Assembly (NCBI GenBank): GCA_031385045.1
Contig: JANNBC010000027.1
Span: forward strand, 1-25,424
DNA: 25,424 nt
Source of the DNA: a bacterium
GTDB taxonomy: Bacteria; Bdellovibrionota_C; UBA2361; CALJRW01
Direction of reading: 5' to 3'
This document shows, piece after piece, positions 474 to 25,283 of this stretch (position 1 is the stretch's first letter; each line of letters opens with the position of its first letter). Made by a program: the position numbers and the translations under genes. Under the pieces are notes generated by a model, which ran no database searches, was not told the DNA's origin, and saw nothing but the letters and a program-made list of their open reading frames with translations.

Positions 474-1526
474 TTGTCCTCAACACTAGCATTTAAAAAT
501 TCCACCAAGGTATCCAGTAAAAATTTTCAACTGATCTTGGAGTCTATTCCAACAGACAACAATGAAAATCTAACTCAAATCAAGACAATCCTACTAACTG
601 ATTTGTCGTTTGATCTAGAGCAGGCTCGTGAAATAATTGAAAATCTACCTCGCCCAATTGCTACTTCCTCTGAACTAAGCGTACTTCAATCTCTCTCCGC
701 CTTATTTGCTAACACAGGGGCAGTCCTAGATATTTTACCGATCGTAGAAGCAACCGTAATCCCACCAAATGTTAACTTTTTTGAGGAGAATATTGATAAT
801 AAGCCTACTCCAGAACAGGTCATTCAGGGAAAAGCAATTAGCCACAAAGACTATTCCCTCTTTGAAGTTAATAAAAGTGATAAATTTGGGGGCAAAGCAA
901 GCCTTGTTACAAAAAATCCGATTGTTTTTAATTCCTTAATTAGTATCTTCTTTGCAAGCATTATGCTGGGATTATCATTTTTAATCTTTTCTGGTAAGCC
1001 AACAGAAGACACCTCAGCTCAACTACTTGAACAAATCAAACTTTTACAACAAGAGGCTTTAAACAATAAGCCTGCTGCCACTAAATTTGTTAGTGAAGAT
1101 AATTATACCGCTAGCTTCATGATTTCTGGTATCACCTTTGATTGCTCAGTTTCTAAAGGTACCAATAATATTATCAGCACAATCACAATCGAAGCAAAAA
1201 ATAATAAGAATTCTAATTTAGCAGAAGAATTCGACAAAGTTTTAATTAATAACTTGCGTGTTAATAATGCTGCCGACAATACTTTTACTGCTAGAGGCGT
1301 AATGAAAATTTACATCAATCAAGCGGGTCAATTAGTCCGACCGACGGCACAAGCATTTATTGGTGGCTCTTATAACGCTGAAGTAGATCAAATCAGCCTA
1401 CGCATCTTGGTAAATCGCGGTTTCGAAGAATTACCAGGAGAAGAAAAATTTATCATCGATCCCTCAAATCTTGAAGAAACAAAGATCTTTATCGATCGAA
1501 ATATCTCCTTAAACAAACAGGGCTAA
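474..1526 (+). CDS. Hypothetical single-pass membrane protein with N-terminal ribosomal bL12(L7/L12)-CTD-like domain
   Basis: 350-aa ORF with TTG start. Residues ~18-87 follow the bL12 CTD pattern. Hydrophobic segment at ~150-172, then a beta-rich C-terminal region. Stop is 3 nt before the next gene. Confidence 0.7.
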   Translation: MSSTLAFKNSTKVSSKNFQLILESIPTDNNENLTQIKTILLTDLSFDLEQAREIIENLPRPIATSSELSVLQSLSALFANTGAVLDILPIVEATVIPPNVNFFEENIDNKPTPEQVIQGKAISHKDYSLFEVNKSDKFGGKASLVTKNPIVFNSLISIFFASIMLGLSFLIFSGKPTEDTSAQLLEQIKLLQQEALNNKPAATKFVSEDNYTASFMISGITFDCSVSKGTNNIISTITIEAKNNKNSNLAEEFDKVLINNLRVNNAADNTFTARGVMKIYINQAGQLVRPTAQAFIGGSYNAEVDQISLRILVNRGFEELPGEEKFIIDPSNLEETKIFIDRNISLNKQG

Positions 1527-3941: not shown

Positions 3942-5114
3942 TTGGTTAAGGCAACATACAAAGCATATCCACCTGAGGAACATGGACTCAAACTTGCTGA
4001 TATCGATAGCGATGCTCTAAAGATCATCCATCGACTTCACCAACATAACCACGAGGCCTATATTGTAGGTGGTGGAGTGCGTGACCTTTTGCTTAAAAAA
4101 AGTCCCAAAGATTTTGATATTGCAACTGATGCTACACCTCAACAAATCCGAAGAATATTTCAAAACTGTCGAATTATTGGCAAACGTTTTAAGCTAGCAC
4201 ATATTTATTTTCGTGGCGGAAAAATTATTGAGGTTGCCACCTTCCGTCAATCAAAAGAATTTGATGAAGATTCCACTGACACCTTAGAACTAGCAACAGA
4301 TGATTGTTATGGAAATATTTCTACCGATGCCCTTCGTCGCGATTTAACTATTAACGCCCTCTTTTTTGATCCTAGTGATGGAATGATTCATGATTATGTT
4401 GGAGGCCTGGAAGATTTTAAGAATAGAATCATTAAAATTATTGGCAAGCCCGAGTTACGCTTTCAGGAAGATCCCGTTCGGATTATTCGCGCTATTCGTC
4501 ATGTCGCACGAACTGGCTTTAAGCTAGATCAGAAAACTGCGGACGCACTTCAAAAGACAGCACCACTCCTTAGCAACTGTCCCGGATCTCGAATCTTTGA
4601 AGAATTTAAGAAAGACTTGCTCTCTGGATACTTTCAAGAAATCCTAGGCTTGTTAAACCATTATAAAATCTTACCAATATTTTTACCGGATTTAGCTGAA
4701 AGAATTAACCAAGATGGCGCACTTTTAAAAGATTTGAATTTTTGCATTAAAGGAATCGATCGTCATTCCTTAGAGAACAAATCCCCTAGTCTCAATATCG
4801 CTCTAACAATTATTGCTCTATTTAGTAGAAATGAATTTCAATTATCAAGCAAACTACCAGAGATATTTCTTGCCCCACAAGATATTCTAGATTTTTATCG
4901 TTCCAATTATCCAAGTTTACAAGTCCCTAAAAAAATTAAACGTGATTGCGCTGACTTAACACGCTACCTGTGGACCTTAGATAATTGTATCCTCAAGAAT
5001 AAAAATTTTAAATTAAAAGTTGATGAGCTGAAAGATGATTTAAAAATCATCCTTAAAATCCTAAATATTAATCAAACTCGCTCTGAGCTAAATAAATTAT
5101 TTAAGTTTGTTTAA
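3942..5114 (+). CDS. pcnB: Poly(A) polymerase I (polynucleotide adenylyltransferase)
   Basis: Class II nucleotidyltransferase motifs VGGGVRD, DFDIAT, EVATFR, RRDLTINA, EDPVRIIRAIR. PAP-specific signature IIGKRFKLAHI separates it from a CCA-adding enzyme. TTG start. Confidence 0.88.
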   Translation: MVKATYKAYPPEEHGLKLADIDSDALKIIHRLHQHNHEAYIVGGGVRDLLLKKSPKDFDIATDATPQQIRRIFQNCRIIGKRFKLAHIYFRGGKIIEVATFRQSKEFDEDSTDTLELATDDCYGNISTDALRRDLTINALFFDPSDGMIHDYVGGLEDFKNRIIKIIGKPELRFQEDPVRIIRAIRHVARTGFKLDQKTADALQKTAPLLSNCPGSRIFEEFKKDLLSGYFQEILGLLNHYKILPIFLPDLAERINQDGALLKDLNFCIKGIDRHSLENKSPSLNIALTIIALFSRNEFQLSSKLPEIFLAPQDILDFYRSNYPSLQVPKKIKRDCADLTRYLWTLDNCILKNKNFKLKVDELKDDLKIILKILNINQTRSELNKLFKFV

Positions 5115-5821
5115 TGCTTAAAAAATATCGACAAGCCTTACTATTATCCTGGAAGGATTTATATCGACATCCAATTATTTTTCTAGGGATTTTTGCCTTA
5201 TTAATTGGATTTCTAATTTGCATCACAATTGTTAGTAAATTGGGTCTTGGGATGGCTGGTGGGTTTATTAGCGGAATGCTCCAAGTGGTGGCATTAACAT
5301 TTTATTTCAATTGGTTAAATTACTGTCAGGCTCCACGTGGAATTAAATTTAAAGACTTACCTGAATTTAACTCGGCACTTTTTACAGCAGTGATTAATGT
5401 CGCCTTTGTCTTATTTATTAGCGATCTGATGCTGCAGAGCTTTTGGGACTCTCCACTCAAAGCAATCGTGATTGGCCTTAACTTAATTGTCGTAATTTGC
5501 TTTAATCCACTTCCAGAAATTATTAATAAACACCAATACCAAGGTCTCACTTCCTTCTCCGAAGCTTTAGACTTTATGAAAAAACGTGGTCTAGAGTGGC
5601 TTCCATTAATTATCCTACCAATCATACCAATATTACTCTTGACCCCAAAGATGGCACTGATAAAACTTGCTATTAGTAGTCCCCTCATGCCTTTTATTGT
5701 AACACTGAAAAATTTTGAATTTCTGGGTCTTAGCTTCGGCGTACTTCCAATTATCCCCTTAATCATCTTCGCTCATTGGATCATGCTATTTCGCCGAAGA
5801 CTCTATGACCAAATTGCTTAA
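5114..5821 (+). CDS. Hypothetical multi-pass membrane protein
   Basis: 235 aa with about six hydrophobic segments. Start overlaps the pcnB stop (TAATG), implying translational coupling. Confidence 0.75.
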   Translation: MLKKYRQALLLSWKDLYRHPIIFLGIFALLIGFLICITIVSKLGLGMAGGFISGMLQVVALTFYFNWLNYCQAPRGIKFKDLPEFNSALFTAVINVAFVLFISDLMLQSFWDSPLKAIVIGLNLIVVICFNPLPEIINKHQYQGLTSFSEALDFMKKRGLEWLPLIILPIIPILLLTPKMALIKLAISSPLMPFIVTLKNFEFLGLSFGVLPIIPLIIFAHWIMLFRRRLYDQIA

Positions 5822-7876: not shown

Positions 7877-8701
7877 ATGATTAGCAAATTGGTTAAAATA
7901 AATGATAAGTTTTCTATTGGCGCTGGGCAGCCTCTAACAATCATTGCTGGCCCCTGCCAAATTGAATCTGCCGAGCATTGTCAAATGATCGCTACGCGAG
8001 TTCAAGAAATTGCGGCGGAATTTCCAGTAAACTTAGTGTTTAAGGCCTCCTATGACAAAGCGAATCGAACTAGCCTATCCGGCAAACGTGGAGTTGGAAT
8101 AGAATATGGATTAGAAATACTTGGAAATATTAAATCTAAACTTAATGTTCCAGTAATTAGCGATATTCACCTACCCGATCAGGCAAAGATCGCCTCAGAA
8201 GTATTAGATATTCTACAAATCCCGGCATTCCTTTGCCGACAAACCGATCTATTAATTAGTGCTGGAGAAACAGGCAAGGCAATCAATTTAAAAAAGGGTC
8301 AATTCCTTGCTGCCCCTGATTTAAAATATGCGATCGATAAAATTGCCTCCTCTAATGGCAATGACCAAGTTTTACTTTGTGAACGAGGAACTAGTTTTGG
8401 CTATCGCGATTTAATCGTTGATTTTCGTAATTTCCAAATAATGAAAGATCTTGGACATCCTGTAGTTTATGACGCCACACATAGCGTCCAAATTATGGGT
8501 GGCGCCGAAGGTAAAAGTTCTGGAAATCGCCAATATGTTGCCAACCTTAGCGCTGCAGCTGTTGCCTTTGGAATTGATGCATTATTTTTAGAAGTTCATG
8601 ATAACCCCGATCAGGCACCTTCTGATGGACCAAACATGATTAACTTCTTACAGTTTCAAGAGCTCCTGAAACGCGTAACCAAAATCAGAGCATTATCCTA
8701 A
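7877..8701 (+). CDS. kdsA: KDO 8-phosphate synthase
   Basis: IAGPCQIES, FKASYDKANRTS, QIPAFLCRQTDL, KKGQF, ERGTSFGY, DATHSVQ, SDG. Follows pyrG as is common. N-terminal Cys suggests the metal-dependent class. Confidence 0.97.
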   Translation: MISKLVKINDKFSIGAGQPLTIIAGPCQIESAEHCQMIATRVQEIAAEFPVNLVFKASYDKANRTSLSGKRGVGIEYGLEILGNIKSKLNVPVISDIHLPDQAKIASEVLDILQIPAFLCRQTDLLISAGETGKAINLKKGQFLAAPDLKYAIDKIASSNGNDQVLLCERGTSFGYRDLIVDFRNFQIMKDLGHPVVYDATHSVQIMGGAEGKSSGNRQYVANLSAAAVAFGIDALFLEVHDNPDQAPSDGPNMINFLQFQELLKRVTKIRALS

Positions 8702-9726
8702 TGGCTTTCAGGCTTTCGCAAAAACGGCTTTCACAATTTCTAGCAATAACTGTGCTAACAATCTTCTTTTGGCTGGCAATTAAGTTATTAGATCAAAAAA
8801 ACGATTCTTTAAAATTAGATCTACCAAGCGAGGAAGCTCCAGCAATTGATGAACTAACAGAAAAAATTTCCAAAAAAGTAATCGTTCCAGATATCAGCCT
8901 ACAAGACTTTAAACGAAGTTCTCAAAATGATGGACTACTGCGCTGGGAGCTAGAAGGCAAAACGATTGATTTATTTACTGCGGAAGATTTGATTGAAATC
9001 CTACAGCCTAGAATCAAGTCTTATCAAACACCAGAAGATCCACTGACAATTAATGCCAAGAAAGCCGTAGTTTTATTCCAAGAAAATGATATTAAAGAAG
9101 CGGACCTCAAGCAATCCGTCATTATCAAAAATAAGATCTATGAAATCACTACAGAACAAGCCAAGTATAATAAGAGCCAAGAGGTAATCACTTCAAATGA
9201 GGCTGTCAAAATCATCAAAGAAGGAAATATTATCAATGGAGTTGGTCTCCATGCTAACTTAGCAACTGAGGTTTTTGATATTAAATCTAAGGTTGATAGC
9301 ATCCTAAAAGATAAAGAAAAGAAAAAAGAATTTAAAATCACCTCTGAAAAATTAGTCTACGATAATTTAAATTCTGTTTTTACATATACTGGAAATGTGC
9401 TTGCCACTGATGGTAGTTATGTAATTAAGTCTGATCGACTCACTGGCAATATGAATAAGACACAAGAATTGGAAAAGCTGTTTGCCAGTGGCTCTGTAGT
9501 TATTACTCAAGGTACAAATCTTAGAACTTTCTCAGAGAAAGCTGATTTTGATTTTGCTAAAAATCTAATTGTCCTAACAGAAGATCCGGAACTTGAAAAA
9601 GACAATAGCCTCCTTACTGCCGAGAAAATCTATTATAATACTGAGACTGAGCAAAGCCAAGCAGAAGGTGAAGTTGATGTGAAGATCCTAGAAGAGGCAA
9701 AAATTGGAACTAGTAGCAAACCTTAA
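8701..9726 (+). CDS. lptC: LPS export protein, LptC-LptA fusion
   Basis: N-terminal TM anchor. LptC-like region ~65-200 (RWELEG...ITTEQAKY...ITSNEAVKI...INGVGL). LptA/OstA-like region ~210-328 (ITSEKLVYD...YTGNV...IKSDRL...ASGSVVI...LIVLT...AEKIYYN). Lies between kdsA and lptB with no separate lptA. Confidence 0.75.
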   Translation: MAFRLSQKRLSQFLAITVLTIFFWLAIKLLDQKNDSLKLDLPSEEAPAIDELTEKISKKVIVPDISLQDFKRSSQNDGLLRWELEGKTIDLFTAEDLIEILQPRIKSYQTPEDPLTINAKKAVVLFQENDIKEADLKQSVIIKNKIYEITTEQAKYNKSQEVITSNEAVKIIKEGNIINGVGLHANLATEVFDIKSKVDSILKDKEKKKEFKITSEKLVYDNLNSVFTYTGNVLATDGSYVIKSDRLTGNMNKTQELEKLFASGSVVITQGTNLRTFSEKADFDFAKNLIVLTEDPELEKDNSLLTAEKIYYNTETEQSQAEGEVDVKILEEAKIGTSSKP

Positions 9727-11267: not shown

Positions 11268-11570
11268 TTATGGTAAAACTTCAGCTAGAACCTCTGGATC
11301 TGGACTCACTGTAGGCTTAATCCCTAGATCTCTAATTTTACCAGACAAAAACTCAATTTGATCTTCTTGAGGAAGCTGGGAATCAACAAAAATCATCTTT
11401 TCAGCATCAAGCCGACAAGTACCACTTAAAACCCTCCATCCCGGACCGGTTTTTAGCTTTTCGCGACGAACTTGATAACCATTAGTCTTAGCTAAACTTA
11501 CCAAATCTTGGTAGGTTTGTTCCTTTTTAGAGTCTTTTTTGAAGGGTTTTGATGTTTTTCTTACAGCCAC
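11268..11570 (-). CDS. Small hypothetical protein
   Basis: 100-aa ORF with GTG start and AGAAGG upstream. Fills the gap between lptB and rplS. The VRREKL..G....SG.CRL.....IFVD..L....Q pattern looks like a conserved family I cannot name. Confidence 0.7.
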   Translation of the reverse strand: MAVRKTSKPFKKDSKKEQTYQDLVSLAKTNGYQVRREKLKTGPGWRVLSGTCRLDAEKMIFVDSQLPQEDQIEFLSGKIRDLGIKPTVSPDPEVLAEVLP

Positions 11571-15147: not shown

Positions 15148-15739
15148 ATTACTAATCTCTCTATTAGCAATCATGTTTTGTAGTATTACCGCTACCGCCG
15201 AGGTGCAAGTCGGACAGCCCGCCCCAGATTTTCAACTAACAGATTCTAATGGAAAATCTCATAAGCTATCAGATTTTAAAGGTAAGAATGTTGTACTAGA
15301 ATGGTTTAATCATGATTGTCCATTCGTTGTAAAACATTATGGATCTGGGAATATGCAAGCACTACAAGCCAAATACACAAAAGCTGGAGTAATTTGGTTG
15401 GCAATTAATTCAGGTAGCAAAGAATCAGGTTCATACAAAGATCCAAAAACAACAAACGCTCGTACAGTAGAACATAAAGCTGTTCCTACTGCCGTCTTAA
15501 TTGATGATGCGGGAACTGTTGGCAAACTTTATGGAGCAAAAACTACTCCGCATATGTTTGTAGTTGATACCAAAGGAATACTTCGCTATCAAGGCGCAAT
15601 TGATTCAATACCATCTGCAGCACAAGATGATATTGCTAAAGCTGACAATTATGTTAGCCAAGCACTGGACGCAATAATTGCTGGAAAAGAAATCGCCAAC
15701 CCAGTAACTAAATCTTATGGTTGCTCTGTAAAATATTAA
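15134..15739 (+). CDS. Exported thioredoxin-fold redoxin (AhpC/TSA-like, peroxiredoxin-like)
   Basis: Signal peptide. APDFQLTDSNG, LEWFNHDCPFV (single Cys), YGAKTTPHMFV, YQGAID, C-terminal YGCSVKY. Overlaps the dsbD stop. Confidence 0.88.
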   Translation: MSRIKLLISLLAIMFCSITATAEVQVGQPAPDFQLTDSNGKSHKLSDFKGKNVVLEWFNHDCPFVVKHYGSGNMQALQAKYTKAGVIWLAINSGSKESGSYKDPKTTNARTVEHKAVPTAVLIDDAGTVGKLYGAKTTPHMFVVDTKGILRYQGAIDSIPSAAQDDIAKADNYVSQALDAIIAGKEIANPVTKSYGCSVKY

Positions 15740-15753
15740 GTTCTAAAAATTCT

Positions 15754-15807
15754 AACCTTTTAGTAGCTCAATCAGAACTCCAAACTGAGTGACTACTAAG
15801 AGGTTTT
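15754..15807. terminator. Imperfect hairpin between convergent redoxin and dtd genes
   Basis: AACCTTTTAGTAG-CTCA (from 15754) pairs with TGAG-CTACTAAGAGGTT (to 15805), followed by Ts. Confidence 0.6.
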
Positions 15808-16247
15808 TAAAATTCTAGAGCAATTGTCACTGGCCCATTATTAACCAACTCCACCTGCATATCAGCACCAAAAATACCGACTTGTACACCCTGAGGCATC
15901 GCTAAAAGGAAGCTCAGATAAAACTCATTAAAGAGTAGCGCTGCCTCCTTAGGTGCCATGGCATTAAAGAACTCTGGCCTGCGCCCCTTAGATGTATCAG
16001 CATAAAGTGTAAATTGTGGCACAAGAATAATCTCTCCTTGTGTATCTAATAGTGATCGATCAAAACGTCCTTGATTATTGGCAAAGATTCTAAAATTTAA
16101 AATTTTATCAACAATCAAATTGAATTTACTATTATCATCACCTTGACCAAAACCAACTAGGGCTAAAATGCCCTTACCGATCTTTGCTACAACTTGCTGT
16201 TCTACAGTTACCGATGCTGAAGTAACCCTTTGAATGATGATTTTCAT
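15807..16247 (-). CDS. dtd: D-aminoacyl-tRNA deacylase
   Basis: MKIIIQRVTSASVTV, PQFTL (SQFTL motif), KGRRPEF, FGADMQVELVNNGPVT. Confidence 0.96.
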   Translation of the reverse strand: MKIIIQRVTSASVTVEQQVVAKIGKGILALVGFGQGDDNSKFNLIVDKILNFRIFANNQGRFDRSLLDTQGEIILVPQFTLYADTSKGRRPEFFNAMAPKEAALLFNEFYLSFLLAMPQGVQVGIFGADMQVELVNNGPVTIALEF

Positions 16248-17744: not shown

Positions 17745-18236
17745 TTAGCAATAACTGCTGTTGTAACAATTGATGGGATCAGTAATTCGACTACAGGCGC
17801 CTGAGGTATCTTTAATATAAACCTCTGTGCTACCAGTATTTGTTTTAGCTAGTAATGAAATTGTAGCAGGCAGAGACCTATCGCCACAGCCAGTACCTCC
17901 ATAATGACGAGAATCATAAGAAGTTGTAGCATCTAGATATTCGCCAATTTTATGAACTAAATTGCCATCGCGATCATAAACACTAATACAACTTGGATAT
18001 AAACCAGCACATCCCCTAAGGGTAATAAAACTAGTACTTTGGCTTCTAGGGTCAGAGCTAGGAATACTATCAGAGGCTTCCGATTTCCAAATTTCACACG
18101 GCTTTAATTCGCGAATAGAACTACAAACTAACTCTAGACCACTAGGAATCAAATCAGAGCTAATATTATTTTCAGCAAAACTCGGTTTAGGATGCCCAAG
18201 CAAGACCCATAGGCAGACAAGAACAAATCTATTCAT
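17745..18236 (-). CDS. Hypothetical secreted cysteine-rich protein
   Basis: 163 aa. Signal-peptide-like N-terminus ending SFA. Eight Cys in the predicted mature part. Occupies the cysS-galU gap. Confidence 0.65.
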   Translation of the reverse strand: MNRFVLVCLWVLLGHPKPSFAENNISSDLIPSGLELVCSSIRELKPCEIWKSEASDSIPSSDPRSQSTSFITLRGCAGLYPSCISVYDRDGNLVHKIGEYLDATTSYDSRHYGGTGCGDRSLPATISLLAKTNTGSTEVYIKDTSGACSRITDPINCYNSSYC

Positions 18237-19936: not shown

Positions 19937-20329
19937 ATGTGGAATAATTTTCTTTACGGAATCTGGCTATCCGTGCCAATCATTTTTTTTATTCAATTTA
20001 GTTATAACAGAATAACTGAATTGCGTAAAAAGAAACACGATCCGATTAACCGCTCCAACTATTATCTGCAAGTTGGAGTTTTCACATTATTTTGTTCGGT
20101 TTTTGCTATTCTAGTTAACGAATATTTTCTGATTACTAGCATACCAACTTTAATACATACTGACTATGCCCTAGAAACAATTCAGATTGTATTCTATCCA
20201 CTACTAGTCTCCTTTTTAGCTCCCTATGCTGGCTCAAATAAACCACCAGAGACTCTTCAAGATCATATTCAAAAACATGGGCTGTTAAAGCCTTTCAACA
20301 GTAAAAATAATGAGAATAGCAGGCGTTGA
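19937..20329 (+). CDS. Hypothetical membrane protein (about 3 TM)
   Basis: 130 aa with three hydrophobic segments. Overlaps the rnhB start by 20 nt. Confidence 0.6.
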   Translation: MWNNFLYGIWLSVPIIFFIQFSYNRITELRKKKHDPINRSNYYLQVGVFTLFCSVFAILVNEYFLITSIPTLIHTDYALETIQIVFYPLLVSFLAPYAGSNKPPETLQDHIQKHGLLKPFNSKNNENSRR

Positions 20330-20870
20330 TGAGGCTGGACGTGGTCCCTTAGCTGGACCAGTCGTAGCCGCAGCAGTTGTCTTTCCGGAAGGATATTATA
20401 ATCCAGAGATCAGAGATTCCAAGCAACTTTCCGCTAAAAAACGCGATTCTCTTGTTGAGATTATTAAAAGAGATGCACTTGATTTTGCAATTATCGCAGT
20501 TGGTCATCATCGAATAGATCTAATCAATATTAGGTCCGCTAGTTTACTAGCTATGAGCCTAGCACTAAAACGAATTAGTGCCGACCAAGTATTAATCGAT
20601 GGCAATGCACTAATTAATACAAAACTAACTCAGGAAGCAATTATCAAAGGAGATCAGAAATTTGTACAAATCTCCGCCGCATCGATCTTAGCAAAACAAT
20701 ATCGCGATGAGTTAATGGTAGTAATCGATCAAAAATATCCTGGATTTAATTTTACTAAACATGCCGGCTATCCAACAAAGTCCCACCTTGAAGCAATTGC
20801 CCAAATTGGACCATCGCCAATTCACCGCAAAACCTTTAAAGGGGTCAAGGAATTCCTACTTATTAAATAA
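20310..20870 (+). CDS. rnhB: Ribonuclease HII
   Basis: AGVDEAGRGPLAGPVVAAAV, RDSKQL, LIDGN, KGD, ISAASILAK, HAGYPT, HRKTF. Confidence 0.97.
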   Translation: MRIAGVDEAGRGPLAGPVVAAAVVFPEGYYNPEIRDSKQLSAKKRDSLVEIIKRDALDFAIIAVGHHRIDLINIRSASLLAMSLALKRISADQVLIDGNALINTKLTQEAIIKGDQKFVQISAASILAKQYRDELMVVIDQKYPGFNFTKHAGYPTKSHLEAIAQIGPSPIHRKTFKGVKEFLLIK

Positions 20871-21240
20871 ATTTATTGGCTGGAGCGGTGAACTACTAGC
20901 AACAATTTACTTTCAGTCAAAATCATTTCTGATTTTAAATCGCAATTACCGAACGAAAAAAGGAGAAATTGACCTGATAGTTCTTAAAAATAGAACAATA
21001 CACTTTATTGAGGTCAAAACTAGCTTAAAATCTAATGCCTATTACTCTAATTTACTAAGAGTTAATCAATTAAAACAAAAGAAGATTAAAAGCCTTGCCT
21101 CCGACTATCTGTTTAGACAAAGAAAAATGTATATCAAGTACTATCCAAATCAGATTAGTTTTGATGTAGTCTTAATTAACTGGGATATGTGTTTAAAATT
21201 TAAATCATGCTTAAAATATATTCCAAGATATTTTAAATAA
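20761..21240 (+). CDS. yraN: YraN family (UPF0102) putative nuclease; start uncertain
   Basis: G..GE..A..Y, ILNRNYR...GEIDLI, HFIEVKT, V...KQKKI, FDVV. Usual position after rnhB. The homologous region starts only near 20860-20880. Confidence 0.8.
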   Translation: MPAIQQSPTLKQLPKLDHRQFTAKPLKGSRNSYLLNKFIGWSGELLATIYFQSKSFLILNRNYRTKKGEIDLIVLKNRTIHFIEVKTSLKSNAYYSNLLRVNQLKQKKIKSLASDYLFRQRKMYIKYYPNQISFDVVLINWDMCLKFKSCLKYIPRYFK

Positions 21241-21485
21241 TGCAAAATAATATGAAGAAACGAAGATTACTTTTTCGCTTAGCAACCTGTCCTTATTGTA
21301 AAAAGGCAGAAGCAGCTTTAGATAATGCAAAAATTGAATATCAAAAAATTGATATTAACCCGACAGATCGCAGTGTAATTGAATTACTTTCAGGACAAAA
21401 AACTGTACCAATATTAGTAGAAGTAATTGGCTCGGAAAGCCAAGATGATGATATAATTGACTACATCAAAACCATTAAAAACTAG
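21240..21485 (+). CDS. Glutaredoxin-like protein
   Basis: CPYC active site, LSGQKTVPIL (cis-Pro motif), DDIIDYI. Coupled to the yraN stop (TAATG). Alternative start ATG 21252. Confidence 0.85.
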   Translation: MQNNMKKRRLLFRLATCPYCKKAEAALDNAKIEYQKIDINPTDRSVIELLSGQKTVPILVEVIGSESQDDDIIDYIKTIKN

Positions 21486-21608: not shown

Positions 21609-21703
21609 ACCATTCTGTTAACTTTAAGGACGGTCACAAGTTATAATAATAAATTAGAGATTATTTTAAGCTACCGTCCACACAGATTTTTTTGGAGAAT
21701 AAT

Positions 21704-21907
21704 ATGTCTGATAAAGAAGTACTAATTGTGGTTTCTAAACTTAAGTCCCATGTAAAAAAAGCTCACAACATGAGCACAGCTGCTACAGTTCCAGCAGTAC
21801 TTAGTGATTACGTTGCAAAAATCATAACTAAAGCTGCTGAAAGCGCTCAAAAAGATAAGCGTAAAACTATTATGGATCGTGATTTTAGCTTTTTAAACGA
21901 AGCCTAG
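21704..21907 (+). CDS. Bacterial histone-fold protein (Bdellovibrio Bd0055/HBb-like singlet)
   Basis: 67-aa Lys-rich protein. N-terminal EVLIVVSKLK and C-terminal A.KDKRKTIMDRD histone-fold L2/alpha3 motif (RKTxxxxD). ATG 21704 follows a GGAG SD at 21694-21697. Confidence 0.88.
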   Translation: MSDKEVLIVVSKLKSHVKKAHNMSTAATVPAVLSDYVAKIITKAAESAQKDKRKTIMDRDFSFLNEA

Positions 21908-21921
21908 TCATACATTCATTT

Positions 21922-21952
21922 GTGATAGAGATGACCAAGTCATCTCTATCAC
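21922..21952. terminator. Perfect 14-bp hairpin between convergent histone and nadC genes
   Basis: GTGATAGAGATGAC-CAA-GTCATCTCTATCAC. No U-tract in either direction, so a terminator role is uncertain. Confidence 0.55.
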
Positions 21953-22006: not shown

Positions 22007-22900
22007 TCAGCTAGATAAGATCTCTAAAGAAAGATCCACCGCGGTTGCACTATGTGTTAAGGCCCCAACAGAAATAAAATCTACACCAGACTCAGCAATG
22101 GCACGAACGGTTTGTAAACTAACACCGCCACTTGCTTCAAGTTCCACGTGACCTTGATTAAGGGCTACAGCACTCACAAGCTCTGACACCTTCATATTAT
22201 CTAAAAGAATTCGATTAACACCAGTAAGAGTTAAAAAACTTTTTACTTGATCTAAATTATCAGCTTCTAGCTCTACAAAGATATTTGGGAAATCTTTTTT
22301 TAGCTGATTGATTCTCTCTTGTAATTTAGCTTGGTAATCACTTCCAAATCCGGCAAGGTGATTATCTTTAACCATGATCGCATCATATAGCCCCATGCGA
22401 TGATTAACTCCACCTCCAGCAAGGACTGCTTGTTTGGCTAGTACCCTAAAGCCAGGTGTAGTTTTACGAGTGTCTAGAATCTTAGCCTTTGTCCCAGCAG
22501 TTAAATTGACATACTCCCTTGTAAGGGTGGCGATGCCTGACATCCTCTGCATAAAATTAAGTATAATTCTTTCTGCAGATAAGATTGACTGATAGCAACC
22601 AGATATTTCTAATACTGCTTCGCGATTATTAATCCGATCTCCATCATGCTTTAAAGAAACAAGATCAAGAGTTGCGTCCATGCTTTTAGCAACTTGCTTA
22701 GCAATTTCAATTCCAGAAATCACAATTGGATTTGAGGCCTTGGAGATAATTTGAGCTCTAGCCTTAGCCTCTTTGGAAATAAAATACTTGGAGGTCAAAT
22801 CCCCCTGCTTCCCAAGGTCTTCGGCAATTGCTAATTCAATTAGTTGCTGAATCAGCTCTAAATATTCTTTCTTCACAATTAATTCCTGCAGAGTAATCAT
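22007..22900 (-). CDS. nadC: Quinolinate phosphoribosyltransferase (nicotinate-nucleotide diphosphorylase)
   Basis: AEDLG..GDLTS, AERIILN, SGIATLT, DTRKTTPG, NHRMGLYD, KDNH, ILLDNM, EASGG, ISVGALTHS. Start may be GTG 22876. Confidence 0.96.
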   Translation of the reverse strand: MITLQELIVKKEYLELIQQLIELAIAEDLGKQGDLTSKYFISKEAKARAQIISKASNPIVISGIEIAKQVAKSMDATLDLVSLKHDGDRINNREAVLEISGCYQSILSAERIILNFMQRMSGIATLTREYVNLTAGTKAKILDTRKTTPGFRVLAKQAVLAGGGVNHRMGLYDAIMVKDNHLAGFGSDYQAKLQERINQLKKDFPNIFVELEADNLDQVKSFLTLTGVNRILLDNMKVSELVSAVALNQGHVELEASGGVSLQTVRAIAESGVDFISVGALTHSATAVDLSLEILSS

Positions 22901-23447
22901 ATAATTTTAAAAGTACTTCTCGGATATTAGCATTTTCTTGAATAAAAAGCTCCTTAGCTTTTGTTAATAATTCAGAACGATCTAGTTCTAGGGGGATATT
23001 TATTTCACTTAAAATCCGGAACAGTGTCTCTTCTGTCCCAACAGTATCTAACAAGACAGGAAAGACAGAGGGTCGATGTTGGGAAACAAGTAAACCCTTA
23101 TCTAAGATTTTAGCAGAGTAAAATAAAATATACCCGGATAATATTCCTAGGGTCTGAAAACCATCAACAATCAAAACCTTTACTAATAAAAGCTTGTTTA
23201 GTACTTGCCAAAAGCTAAGCCTGGAATTTTCACTAGAAAGATAAATAATTTGTATATCCTGTTGTAAAAATCGCTCAGCTAATCCTTCTAGAAAGGTTGT
23301 TTTACCACTACCATGCTTTCCAACTACAGAAGCTCGATAGTCAAAGTTATGAAGCTTCTTTAATACATCCGCCCACTGATCTTCAGTTAAAAAGTAATCA
23401 ATTTTCAAAAGCTCTCTGGTCGCAAAAGGATTATTCTTTGGTCTCAT
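22836..23447 (-). CDS. Small P-loop NTPase (AAA+-like)
   Basis: N-terminal NPF, Walker A GKHGSGKTT, Walker B LIVDG, C-terminal NIREVL. 3' end overlaps nadC. Confidence 0.75.
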   Translation of the reverse strand: MRPKNNPFATRELLKIDYFLTEDQWADVLKKLHNFDYRASVVGKHGSGKTTFLEGLAERFLQQDIQIIYLSSENSRLSFWQVLNKLLLVKVLIVDGFQTLGILSGYILFYSAKILDKGLLVSQHRPSVFPVLLDTVGTEETLFRILSEINIPLELDRSELLTKAKELFIQENANIREVLLKLYDYSAGINCEERIFRADSATN

Positions 23448-23452
23448 GGACG

Positions 23453-24439
23453 TTATTCCTGAATAGATTCTATTTCCAACTGCATAAATCGATCATCTAC
23501 AACATTCTGATAGTCTGGCAATGGTTGCGTTTGAAAATTAGCTTGGGACTTACGAATCCAAACACCAATTTGAGAGATTAAAGACAATGCTACGCTTCCT
23601 CGCTTAGCCTGAAAGGTATATTTTTCTAAAACTTTCTTGACATCATCAATCGAGACTCTAATCTCTGAAGATAAATATGGGTAAGTACTTTCAGGATAAT
23701 TACTATAGAATTCACTAGCCTTAGCCAATCCTAAGACTAGCTTTTGAAGCTCTAATGGTTTCTCTTGAATTACATTTTCGGTTGTAGCCAATAAGATCTT
23801 TGAGGGATAAATATCTAATTTATTAAAAAAGACACCGATATTATCTCCTAAAGATTTTTCAATATTATTACCCCACGGTTGCCAAATACTAACAGCATCT
23901 ACAAAATTATTTTTTAAGGCTGCTTCCATTCCTGCTGGCTGAAGAGCTATTGGCTTAATATCTTGCCAGTTAATATTATTAACTTCCAAAAATCTTGCTA
24001 GAAAAATATGGGAAGTACTAGCTGGAACATATCCTATTTTCTTAGCGATCAGATCTTTAGGGGCATTGATTCCCAATTCTTTTTTAAAATAAATACTATC
24101 TGCTAAGCGATCCCCTAAGGAAGCGATGATTCGAATTGGATTAACAGTAAAATTAAGATAGGAGACATTAACATCCACCAAAGTACCAACTTCAATATCT
24201 CCAGATATCAATGCATCCATAACAGACTTTCCAGTTTGGAATTTATGATATCTTACTGACAATATCTGCTCTGGATAAATACCTTGATACTTAGTAATAA
24301 TGGGCAGTACACTTAAAGCTGGAGTACTACCAAAAGATAAACTTGGAGTCGTTGATCGATTAGTATCAAGGCTGCCAAAAATTTGAGAAACAACAATAAC
24401 TAACAAGACAGAAGATAAAATTATTAAAGTAATTTTCAT
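23453..24439 (-). CDS. ABC-type substrate-binding protein, SsuA/NMT1-THI5-like
   Basis: N-terminal anchor, FQTGKSVMDALISGDIEV, DLIAKKIGY, ALKNNFVDAVSIWQP. ATG 24439 overlaps the upstream stop (TGATG). Confidence 0.8.
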   Translation of the reverse strand: MKITLIILSSVLLVIVVSQIFGSLDTNRSTTPSLSFGSTPALSVLPIITKYQGIYPEQILSVRYHKFQTGKSVMDALISGDIEVGTLVDVNVSYLNFTVNPIRIIASLGDRLADSIYFKKELGINAPKDLIAKKIGYVPASTSHIFLARFLEVNNINWQDIKPIALQPAGMEAALKNNFVDAVSIWQPWGNNIEKSLGDNIGVFFNKLDIYPSKILLATTENVIQEKPLELQKLVLGLAKASEFYSNYPESTYPYLSSEIRVSIDDVKKVLEKYTFQAKRGSVALSLISQIGVWIRKSQANFQTQPLPDYQNVVDDRFMQLEIESIQE

Positions 24440-24819
24440 CAATTTGCTTTCAGACCTTCTTGCACTATCACAATCTCGTTTGCCTCAGGTGCAATAATAA
24501 TTTCTAACTCTGCTTTTTCAATTGCTGGACTAGTTACAACTTCAATCACCCAGATAATAGAGATCAAACTACCAGAATAACTCCAAGGCCCAACGGTAGG
24601 GATTTTTAAACTAAAATTAGCCTCTCCGCGCTTAGCTTGTTGTGGTATTACCAATTGATCTACTTGATCAGCATCCTCTGTTCCACGACCTTGAGTATGC
24701 CAGATTAAATTTACTAGAATTTCTTCCGGTGCCTGGTCAAAACTCCAAAGGAGAGTCCCCGTAATTACTTCGCCAGGACGAAAGTTTTTGACTCCTAAAC
24801 TGGTATTAATCTCAATCAT
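24439..24819 (-). CDS. Hypothetical beta-sandwich (Ig/arrestin-like) protein
   Basis: 126 aa, beta-rich: FRPGEVITG, LIWHTQGRGTED, GPWSYSGSLISIIW. Coupled to both neighbours by overlapping stop/start codons. Confidence 0.7.
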   Translation of the reverse strand: MIEINTSLGVKNFRPGEVITGTLLWSFDQAPEEILVNLIWHTQGRGTEDADQVDQLVIPQQAKRGEANFSLKIPTVGPWSYSGSLISIIWVIEVVTSPAIEKAELEIIIAPEANEIVIVQEGLKAN

Positions 24820-25283
24820 TTCGGACTCACTACTAATTCAAAGGTTTCTTGAACATCAGGAAAGCTAGCAATTTGTACGATACACTTTAATTGATAAACT
24901 AATTTATTATTGGGGGCATTAAAAGAATGAATTAAATTAGCAGGTAGTTTTAACAAGCTCTCCCCGTGTCGTTCCCGAGATTTGCCAAGCTGTGAATAAA
25001 TGTTTTGTTGATAAATCACTTTTTTATCCGTTTTTGTATCTGTCCCCCGACGATAGGTTGCTTGCTCCTCTAATTGAAAAGTAATTTCAATGCCCTCTAT
25101 CACTCTATTGGAACGATCTAAACTCCAATAGATCTTATATTCACCACCTGGTTTAAGTGGATGATTATCAATCTCTAACTTTAGCTGTGGGTTAAATAAT
25201 TGTAGGAATGAATAAATTACTCCATAGATGGTTAGTAGCCCAATGAGTCCAAAGATTATTGTCATAAAGACTGGAGCATGGCC
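24816..25283 (-). pseudogene. 3' part of a membrane-protein gene, probably interrupted by the adjacent IS
   Basis: The frame is open from the IS junction (GHAPVFMTIIFGLIG...). It starts abruptly just before a TM helix, then has a beta domain (EEQATYRRGTDT, HSFNAPNNKL, FPDV) that I recall as the C-terminus of longer DUF3592-type proteins. Confidence 0.6.

Follow-up and report, generated by a model that had tools for sequence, protein, structure and literature searches.

The open reading frame at 21704..21907 almost certainly encodes a bacterial histone of the Bd0055/HBb type, a member of the class known as 'bacterial dimers'. It lies in a stretch of 25,424 nucleotides (hereafter the window), from a genome of 2.83 Mb that is 95% complete with 0.31% contamination. 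The gene and its flanking features are as follows, L004 being the histone locus of a close relative:

21704..21907 (+): histone gene, 67 aa, single histone fold, ATG at 21704 to TAG ending at 21907
21694..21697 (+): Shine-Dalgarno sequence GGAG, 6 nt 5' of the ATG at 21704, identical in L004
21618..21647 (+): candidate sigma-70-type promoter TTAACT-18-TATAAT, 10/12 match to consensus, -10 box kept in L004
21560..21650 (+): non-coding upstream block conserved in a two-sequence alignment with L004, likely regulatory, which may contain a second promoter
21922..21952 (no strand): perfect 14-bp hairpin in the gap that separates the histone gene from the convergent nadC, a possible terminator or RNA-stabilising stem
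21240..21485 (+): glutaredoxin-like gene (grx), the upstream neighbour within the genus only
22007..22900 (-): nadC (quinolinate phosphoribosyltransferase), the convergent downstream neighbour, which bounds the unit on its 3' side

An earlier note on this DNA had described a basic ORF of 67 residues with a GGAG Shine-Dalgarno sequence, a promoter-like site and a 3' hairpin, and all of these were found in their places (pI 9.57; 12 Lys and Arg against 8 Asp and Glu). A mechanical ORF list starts the frame at TTG 21692, giving 71 residues, but the GGAG overlaps that codon. Between 20500 and 23000 there are 10 promoter-like sites, of which the candidate promoter scores highest; shuffled sequence yields 9.1 +/- 3.3, so that the count itself is at chance level. 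What raises this site above chance is the conservation in L004 of TATAAT and about 90 nt of the surrounding upstream region, in an alignment of two sequences only in which the part closer to grx has diverged. The downstream hairpin is stable (-21.7 kcal/mol, z -6.5, with none of 200 shuffles as stable); the genome holds 100 perfect hairpins of this kind and no second copy of this sequence. We rejected its reading as an intrinsic terminator because the U-tract is missing. It is not one of the 4 terminator-like sites detected in the region, and it is not kept in L004, whose 3' sequence differs. The same note had assigned the gene to its own transcription unit. This stands on the right, where nadC converges. 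On the left, grx precedes the gene by 218 nt with the same orientation, and no + strand terminator was detected behind it, which leaves a monocistronic transcript likely and no more.

A conserved gene neighbourhood was considered and rejected: among 30 loci and six neighbours tested, only L004 and L005, which have the same protein and flanks and were counted once, share these surroundings, and a grx-like gene is present at one further locus. For every locus but L004, the test covers only about 1.5 kb per side. In L004, histone gene and nadC are separated by an ORF on the - strand that lies about 157-1647 nt beyond the stop of the histone gene and encodes 496 aa with a Cys-rich, ferredoxin-like motif; it is absent from the corresponding place in the window. 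At another locus, L022, a 15-nt unit is repeated head to tail about four times downstream of the histone stop, as far as the end of the contig; this may be an artefact of assembly.

The family assignment of the earlier note, a Bd0055/HBb-like histone with a short alpha2, was borne out by both sequence and structure searches. A phmmer search of the PDB returned HBb first (8cmp/8fvx; E 2.4e-8; residues 5-61, 57 residues ungapped) and HLp second (E 0.0057). The Pfam family PF00808 was passed narrowly (22.6 bits against a cut-off of 21.4), while the archaeal histone model NF043032 of NCBIfam failed (18.8 against 50); the expectation that annotation pipelines would call the gene hypothetical thus holds for the second model and not for the first. 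An AlphaFold2 model, built on an alignment of 48 sequences (the window protein, P0001-P0004 and 43 short matches hand-picked from 150 listed), has a pLDDT of 90.4 and helices at 10-21, 29-50 and 58-64. In Foldseek, the comparison that the note had proposed as a check, five HBb chains came out on top (probability 1.00, rmsd 0.8-0.9 Å over 56-57 columns, E 8e-5 to 6e-4, 43-44% identity), followed by HTkC and HLp (rmsd 1.1-1.3 Å, 28-31% identity). The three helices, the long central alpha2 and the matches to solved histones are those of a histone fold.

Alpha3 histones have an alpha2 that is 4-5 residues shorter than that of nucleosomal histones and an alpha3 of 3-4 residues against 10 (PMC11390915). 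The predicted alpha2 of 22 residues has the same length as that of HBb by ungapped alignment and is therefore short in this sense. The predicted alpha3, residues 58-64, counts 7 residues, its last block having a pLDDT of 82; 7 residues follow the clamp Asp (D60) here against 6 in HBb, and the superposition on HBb holds through residue 63. The fold alone does not settle the class, since VIA-align ties HBb (Z 8.4, rmsd 1.2, 58 aligned) with HLp (7.9, 1.2, 56) and HTkC (7.6, 1.2, 57); the archaeal HPhA lies further away (Z 6.3, rmsd 2.1 Å, 61 aligned).

PMC11390915 divides the short-helix (alpha3) histones into two classes, those that form face-to-face tetramers and the bacterial dimers. A histone belongs to the bacterial dimers if its sequence resembles that of HBb and if it lacks an Arg and an Asn, which in HLp are R49 and N53 (PMC12701072). 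The window protein has S47 and D51 at these sites, as HBb has S45 and D49 (HBb positions are raised by 2 in the numbering of the window protein), and the Arg/Asn pair occurs in 0/30 domains of the order and 0/184 wider domains. Residue 47 is Ser, His or Asn among the closest relatives, with His in L004. By sequence the protein groups with HBb (E 2.4e-8 against 0.0057 for HLp; identity 44% against 28-31%), the published class method being CLANS. The RKTxxxxD histone-fold signature named in the earlier note is present as RKTIMDRD at residues 53-60 (R53, K54, T55, D60), the D49-R51-D58 bridge of HBb aligns to D51-R53-D60, and the SK motif and alpha1 lysines are in place (S11, K12, K14, K18). Of the ten residues that contact DNA in simulations of HBb (PMC11317129), seven are identical here, and T8, N22 and S24 are replaced by V10, S24 and A26. 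The top contact, N22, is thus a Ser, as in 3/30 domains of the order, all from the same family, and in 34/183 wider domains. Further departures from the order consensus are H16, N22, I41, T42 and K52. The changes A48H, S45F and I61L allowed Bd0055 to bring DNA ends together (PMC10627809); these sites are K50, S47 and F63 here, K50 standing where the His of the nucleosomal four-helix bundle would be (A48 in HBb; PMC10627809).

Oligomer modelling, which the earlier note had called for, gave a predicted handshake dimer. A structure prediction with four copies reached a self-association score of 0.76, against 0.01 for the best of 3 controls; at least 71% of contacts were shared between runs, and the pLDDT was at least 82. 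The mark for self-association is one that 20/30 solved pairs and 1/23 single chains reach, in a calibration set up differently from this four-copy prediction on an alignment of its own, and the score shows likeness rather than binding, since the HBb complex is already solved and the prediction may simply reproduce it. The named contacts (37-37, 33-41, 17-45 and 24-56) make up a handshake between two copies, and the chains are predicted to dimerise through their crossed alpha2 helices. No confident contacts between dimers were named, residues left unnamed being uncertain rather than shown apart, so that the prediction speaks neither for a tetramer nor against one.

The same note had suggested that a Pro where alpha2 begins, together with the tail FSFLNEA, may change oligomerisation, which found little backing. 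We rejected Pro30 as a special feature: it occurs in 13/30 domains of the order (10/27 outside its own family) and 18/183 wider domains, and a Pro at 30 or 31 in 18/30 and 43/184. Of the 37 other genomes of the order with a match, 29 contributed to the order set of 30 domains, through best-scoring loci only; the wider set has 183 domains from 151/152 wider matches. Pro30 occupies the second position of the predicted alpha2 helix, and proline is well tolerated there. The tail exceeds that of HBb by one residue; among 114 single-domain proteins the median tail has 5 residues, the shortest 1 and the longest more than 15. An F-x-F-L/I tail is found in 8/147 relatives, one of them 93% identical, and the tail is kept within the genus. 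In favour of the proposal, the modelled alpha3 has 7 residues where the class definition gives 3-4.

Codon use points, indirectly, to a highly expressed gene. Measured against 23 ribosomal-protein genes chosen by translation, the histone gene has a CAI of 0.679, above 99.1% of 2268 script-called ORFs of at least 100 aa (98.4% by log-ratio); in a comparison with 10,000 length-matched windows it exceeds 96.2% by CAI and 98.4% by log-ratio. The likeness to rplS that the earlier note had remarked on holds (CAI 0.666, 98.5%), and EF-G and a tailed HU-like gene rank similarly. Together with the Shine-Dalgarno sequence and the promoter-like block, this suggests that the gene probably has a transcript of its own and yields the histone in large amounts. 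The gene differs from that of L004 by 26 synonymous and 3 non-synonymous changes, all three in one codon (dS 1.26, dN 0.019), and the proteins are 99% identical where neighbouring proteins are 58-88% identical; by this comparison the gene is under strong purifying selection. Its GC content is 35.8% against 36.8% for the genome.

The same genome encodes other nucleoid proteins. A profile search of all six frames of the genome found the window histone and one Cys-rich paralogue, and no other. This second histone-fold protein of 178 aa (L002:1498-2034 (-), in G000:C26; profile E 7e-19) has an N-terminal Cys/His cluster and a C-terminal fold, matches no Pfam family, and by eye fits the description of a ZZ-histone like Bd3044; a DEAD-box-like helicase ORF lies upstream on the same strand. 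Its codon use is ordinary (10th percentile by log-ratio), and the contrast agrees with B. bacteriovorus, where Bd0055 is reported as highly and the ZZ histone as weakly expressed (PMC11390915, PMC10627809). DUF1931 was not found in this 95% complete genome, which has one ferritin-family gene. HU/IHF genes number three. One of them (G000:C31:2956-3405 (-), L036), at the 98.7th percentile of codon use, encodes 149 aa that include a long N-terminal tail rich in Lys, Ala and Pro, likely a second abundant nucleoid protein. The histone-based chromatin that the earlier note inferred is therefore plausible, but it must be read beside three HU/IHF genes, one of them equally biased in its codons.

The host phylum is small, a single class in GTDB with 124 species. 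Profile matches, each of which may be to either histone paralogue, were found in 38/91 genomes of the order, 62/124 of the phylum and 38/73 high-quality genomes. A full HMMER search gave 336 relatives, where a word-indexed protein search gave 4 and a pattern scan of named genomes 1. Neither protein nor profile query found a histone match in the 36 genomes of one family, f18 (G040-G075), which looks like a lineage-wide loss and indicates that the histone is not indispensable across the lineage; 0/4 genomes of f3 and 0/3 of f19 had a match. One of the matches, P0011, is a protein of 4157 aa that reached E 4e-18 through 22 weak stretches, with no domain on re-scoring, and is probably a repeat protein and not a histone.

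In a genome of the same family but another genus (G007), the histone is a tandem doublet of 148 aa (P0005, L006, G007:C22:about 15703-16149 (-)), whose halves, 69% and 60% identical to the window histone, are joined by a short linker and followed by a Cys/Ser-rich tail; no separate singlet was found in this genome, which is 91% complete. Two-fold proteins make up 33/151 wider matches, a share inflated by ranking. In a tree of 45 rows the halves of P0005 pair with each other (86/79, unstarred) within a starred group that includes the window histone (99/95). In several further doublets, too, the two halves join each other, and two pair half with half. With 61 columns and an unsettled bootstrap, the tree gives only a suggestion of repeated fusion. 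Doublets of this type have been published for Bacteriovorax (PMC11789641).

Among readings that keep the fold but change its mode of action, a face-to-face histone like HLp or HTkC would form a ring tetramer without DNA and wrap about 60 bp. The same short alpha2 and alpha3, the ties in VIA-align and a motif that ends D-F, as in HLp, speak for it, but Ser in place of Arg, Asp in place of Asn, the closer identity to HBb and the presence of the canonical RKT lysine, which is missing from the face-to-face profile (PMC11390915), make it very unlikely. It is also improbable, if a little less so, that the longer hydrophobic alpha3 (F61-S62-F63-L64) provides a contact between dimers and hence DNA-dependent tetramers that wrap DNA, unlike HBb. 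The predicted helix 58-64 exceeds the single turn of HBb by three residues, F63 corresponds to I61, one of the three sites whose change let Bd0055 bring DNA ends together (PMC10627809), L004 has His at residue 47, and the tail is kept in the genus, with F-x-F-L/I recurring in 8/147 relatives. Against this, the other two mutant sites carry Lys rather than His and Ser rather than Phe, residue 47 is free to vary, tails in the family are short and unconserved, residues up to 63 superpose on HBb, and residues 61 and 64 are named among the contacts inside one dimer. A bolder version holds that a branch at the level of the family, marked by S24, H16, I41, K52 and the longer hydrophobic alpha3, switched its mode to tetramer wrapping through F61-L64 without the face-to-face or nucleosomal residues. 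We would give this slim chances; if true, the singlet, the doublet of the sister genus and the loss in f18 would form a natural series for the gain, remodelling and loss of bacterial histone chromatin.

The histone could be a minor or stage-specific nucleoid protein, with HU/IHF and especially the tailed HU-like protein doing most of the packaging, in which case histone-based chromatin would be too strong a term. Three HU/IHF genes, the tailed one at the same codon rank, are consistent with this, as is the distribution: HU/IHF is found in 90/91 genomes of the order, against 38/91 for the histone, and in 35/36 genomes of f18, against 0/36. We nevertheless hold it to be unlikely, as the codon use of the histone matches that of ribosomal proteins and EF-G, its dN/dS is very low, and Bd0055 ranks 12th of 2,125 proteins in B. 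bacteriovorus (PMC10627809) despite the presence of HU (PMC12701072). The shortness of the ORF and the lack of conserved neighbours beyond the genus could hint at a chance ORF, a pseudogene, a contaminant or a recent transfer. The intact orthologue in L004 under purifying selection refutes this in practice, and the grouping with a genome of the same family in the tree (99/95), the typical GC content and codon use and the low contamination speak against it.

We therefore consider it probable that the protein is a stand-alone, vertically inherited bacterial-dimer histone that works throughout like HBb/Bd0055. Two chains would form a handshake dimer through their crossed alpha2 helices, as predicted, and the clamp D51-R53-D60, whose residues are observed here, would hold loop L2 as it does in HBb. 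The L1-L2 loops and alpha1 (S11, K12, K14, K18, K54, T55 and R59) would then grip the DNA backbone independently of sequence, by analogy with HBb. Each dimer would bend about 30-36 bp of DNA and, at high load, dimers may coat it, forming, to judge by the missing residues, neither nucleosomes nor face-to-face rings. The product, presumably abundant, would act beside HU/IHF as one of several nucleoid proteins. In simulations, HBb puts a bend of about 84 degrees into 36 bp of DNA, and it binds genome-wide without sequence preference (PMC11317129). In crystals it coats DNA end-on (PMC10627809), and bending versus coating is disputed between these two papers. At odds with an HBb-like mechanism are the three of ten changed DNA contacts, the departures from the consensus, the 7-residue predicted alpha3 and the ties in VIA-align.

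Several further observations were made in the window. The ORFs of rnhB and of a UPF0102/YraN-family protein (20310-21240 (+)) overlap by 110 nt from the first ATG of the latter, whose Pfam match starts only at residue 43, so that its true start is uncertain. At 8701-9726 (+), a protein of 341 aa combines LptC-like and LptA/LptD-N domains, with a kdsA-like ORF before it and an lptB-like ABC ATPase after it (neighbours named by eye). A P-loop protein without a Pfam family above the cut-off and six ORFs without a Pfam match are also present (22836-23447 (-), 24439-25265 (-), 474-1526 (+), 5114-5821 (+), 11268-11570 (-) and 17745-18236 (-)).

Bacterial histones are rare, being found in 1.86% of 18,343 genomes (PMC10627809). 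Two, HBb and HLp, are described as characterised (PMC12701072), and literature from 2025 on gave no further characterised bacterial histone among the matches listed. Each added member is useful for the question of whether these proteins bend, coat or wrap DNA. The best use of this one is comparative: with a singlet here, a related doublet in G007 and no detectable histone in f18 (0/36), one order allows tests of the effect of fusion and of what replaces the histone.

Compared with known systems, the protein is closest to HBb/Bd0055 of Bdellovibrio bacteriovorus (PDB 8CMP, 8FVX, 9EZZ, 9F0E), with which it shares a single fold, the length of alpha2, the D-R-D clamp, RKT and the SK motif at 44% identity and an rmsd of 0.8-0.9 Å; both genomes also carry a longer Cys-rich paralogue and HU/IHF. 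It differs from HBb in V10, S24, A26, Pro30, K52 in place of Gly and an alpha3 predicted to extend three residues further. HLp (Leptospira perolatii, 9QT0) and HTkC (Thermococcus, 9F2C) resemble it in the short alpha2 and alpha3 and in RxTxxxxD (rmsd 1.1-1.3 Å), but have R49 and N53 where S47 and D51 stand here, are 28-31% identical and align with a one-residue gap at the start of alpha2. The archaeal nucleosomal histones HMfB and HPhA have the histone fold and the RKT...D motif in common with it, whereas its alpha2 and alpha3 are shorter and K50 replaces the His of the four-helix bundle. ZZ histones carry an N-terminal ZZ-type zinc finger, in contrast to this 67-aa single fold without Cys. 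Finally, the histone of 'Deltaproteobacteria bacterium UBA2361' catalogued in 2023 (Table S1 of PMC10627809) is a singlet of 72 aa that also has Pro at this position of alpha2; it is a different protein from ours and matches a histone of the same order (G037/L033) at 46/59 residues, counted by eye, which suggests that the histones of this order were already catalogued. The class, the histones of the lineage and fused doublets are all published, and the gene described here adds a member to a known family.
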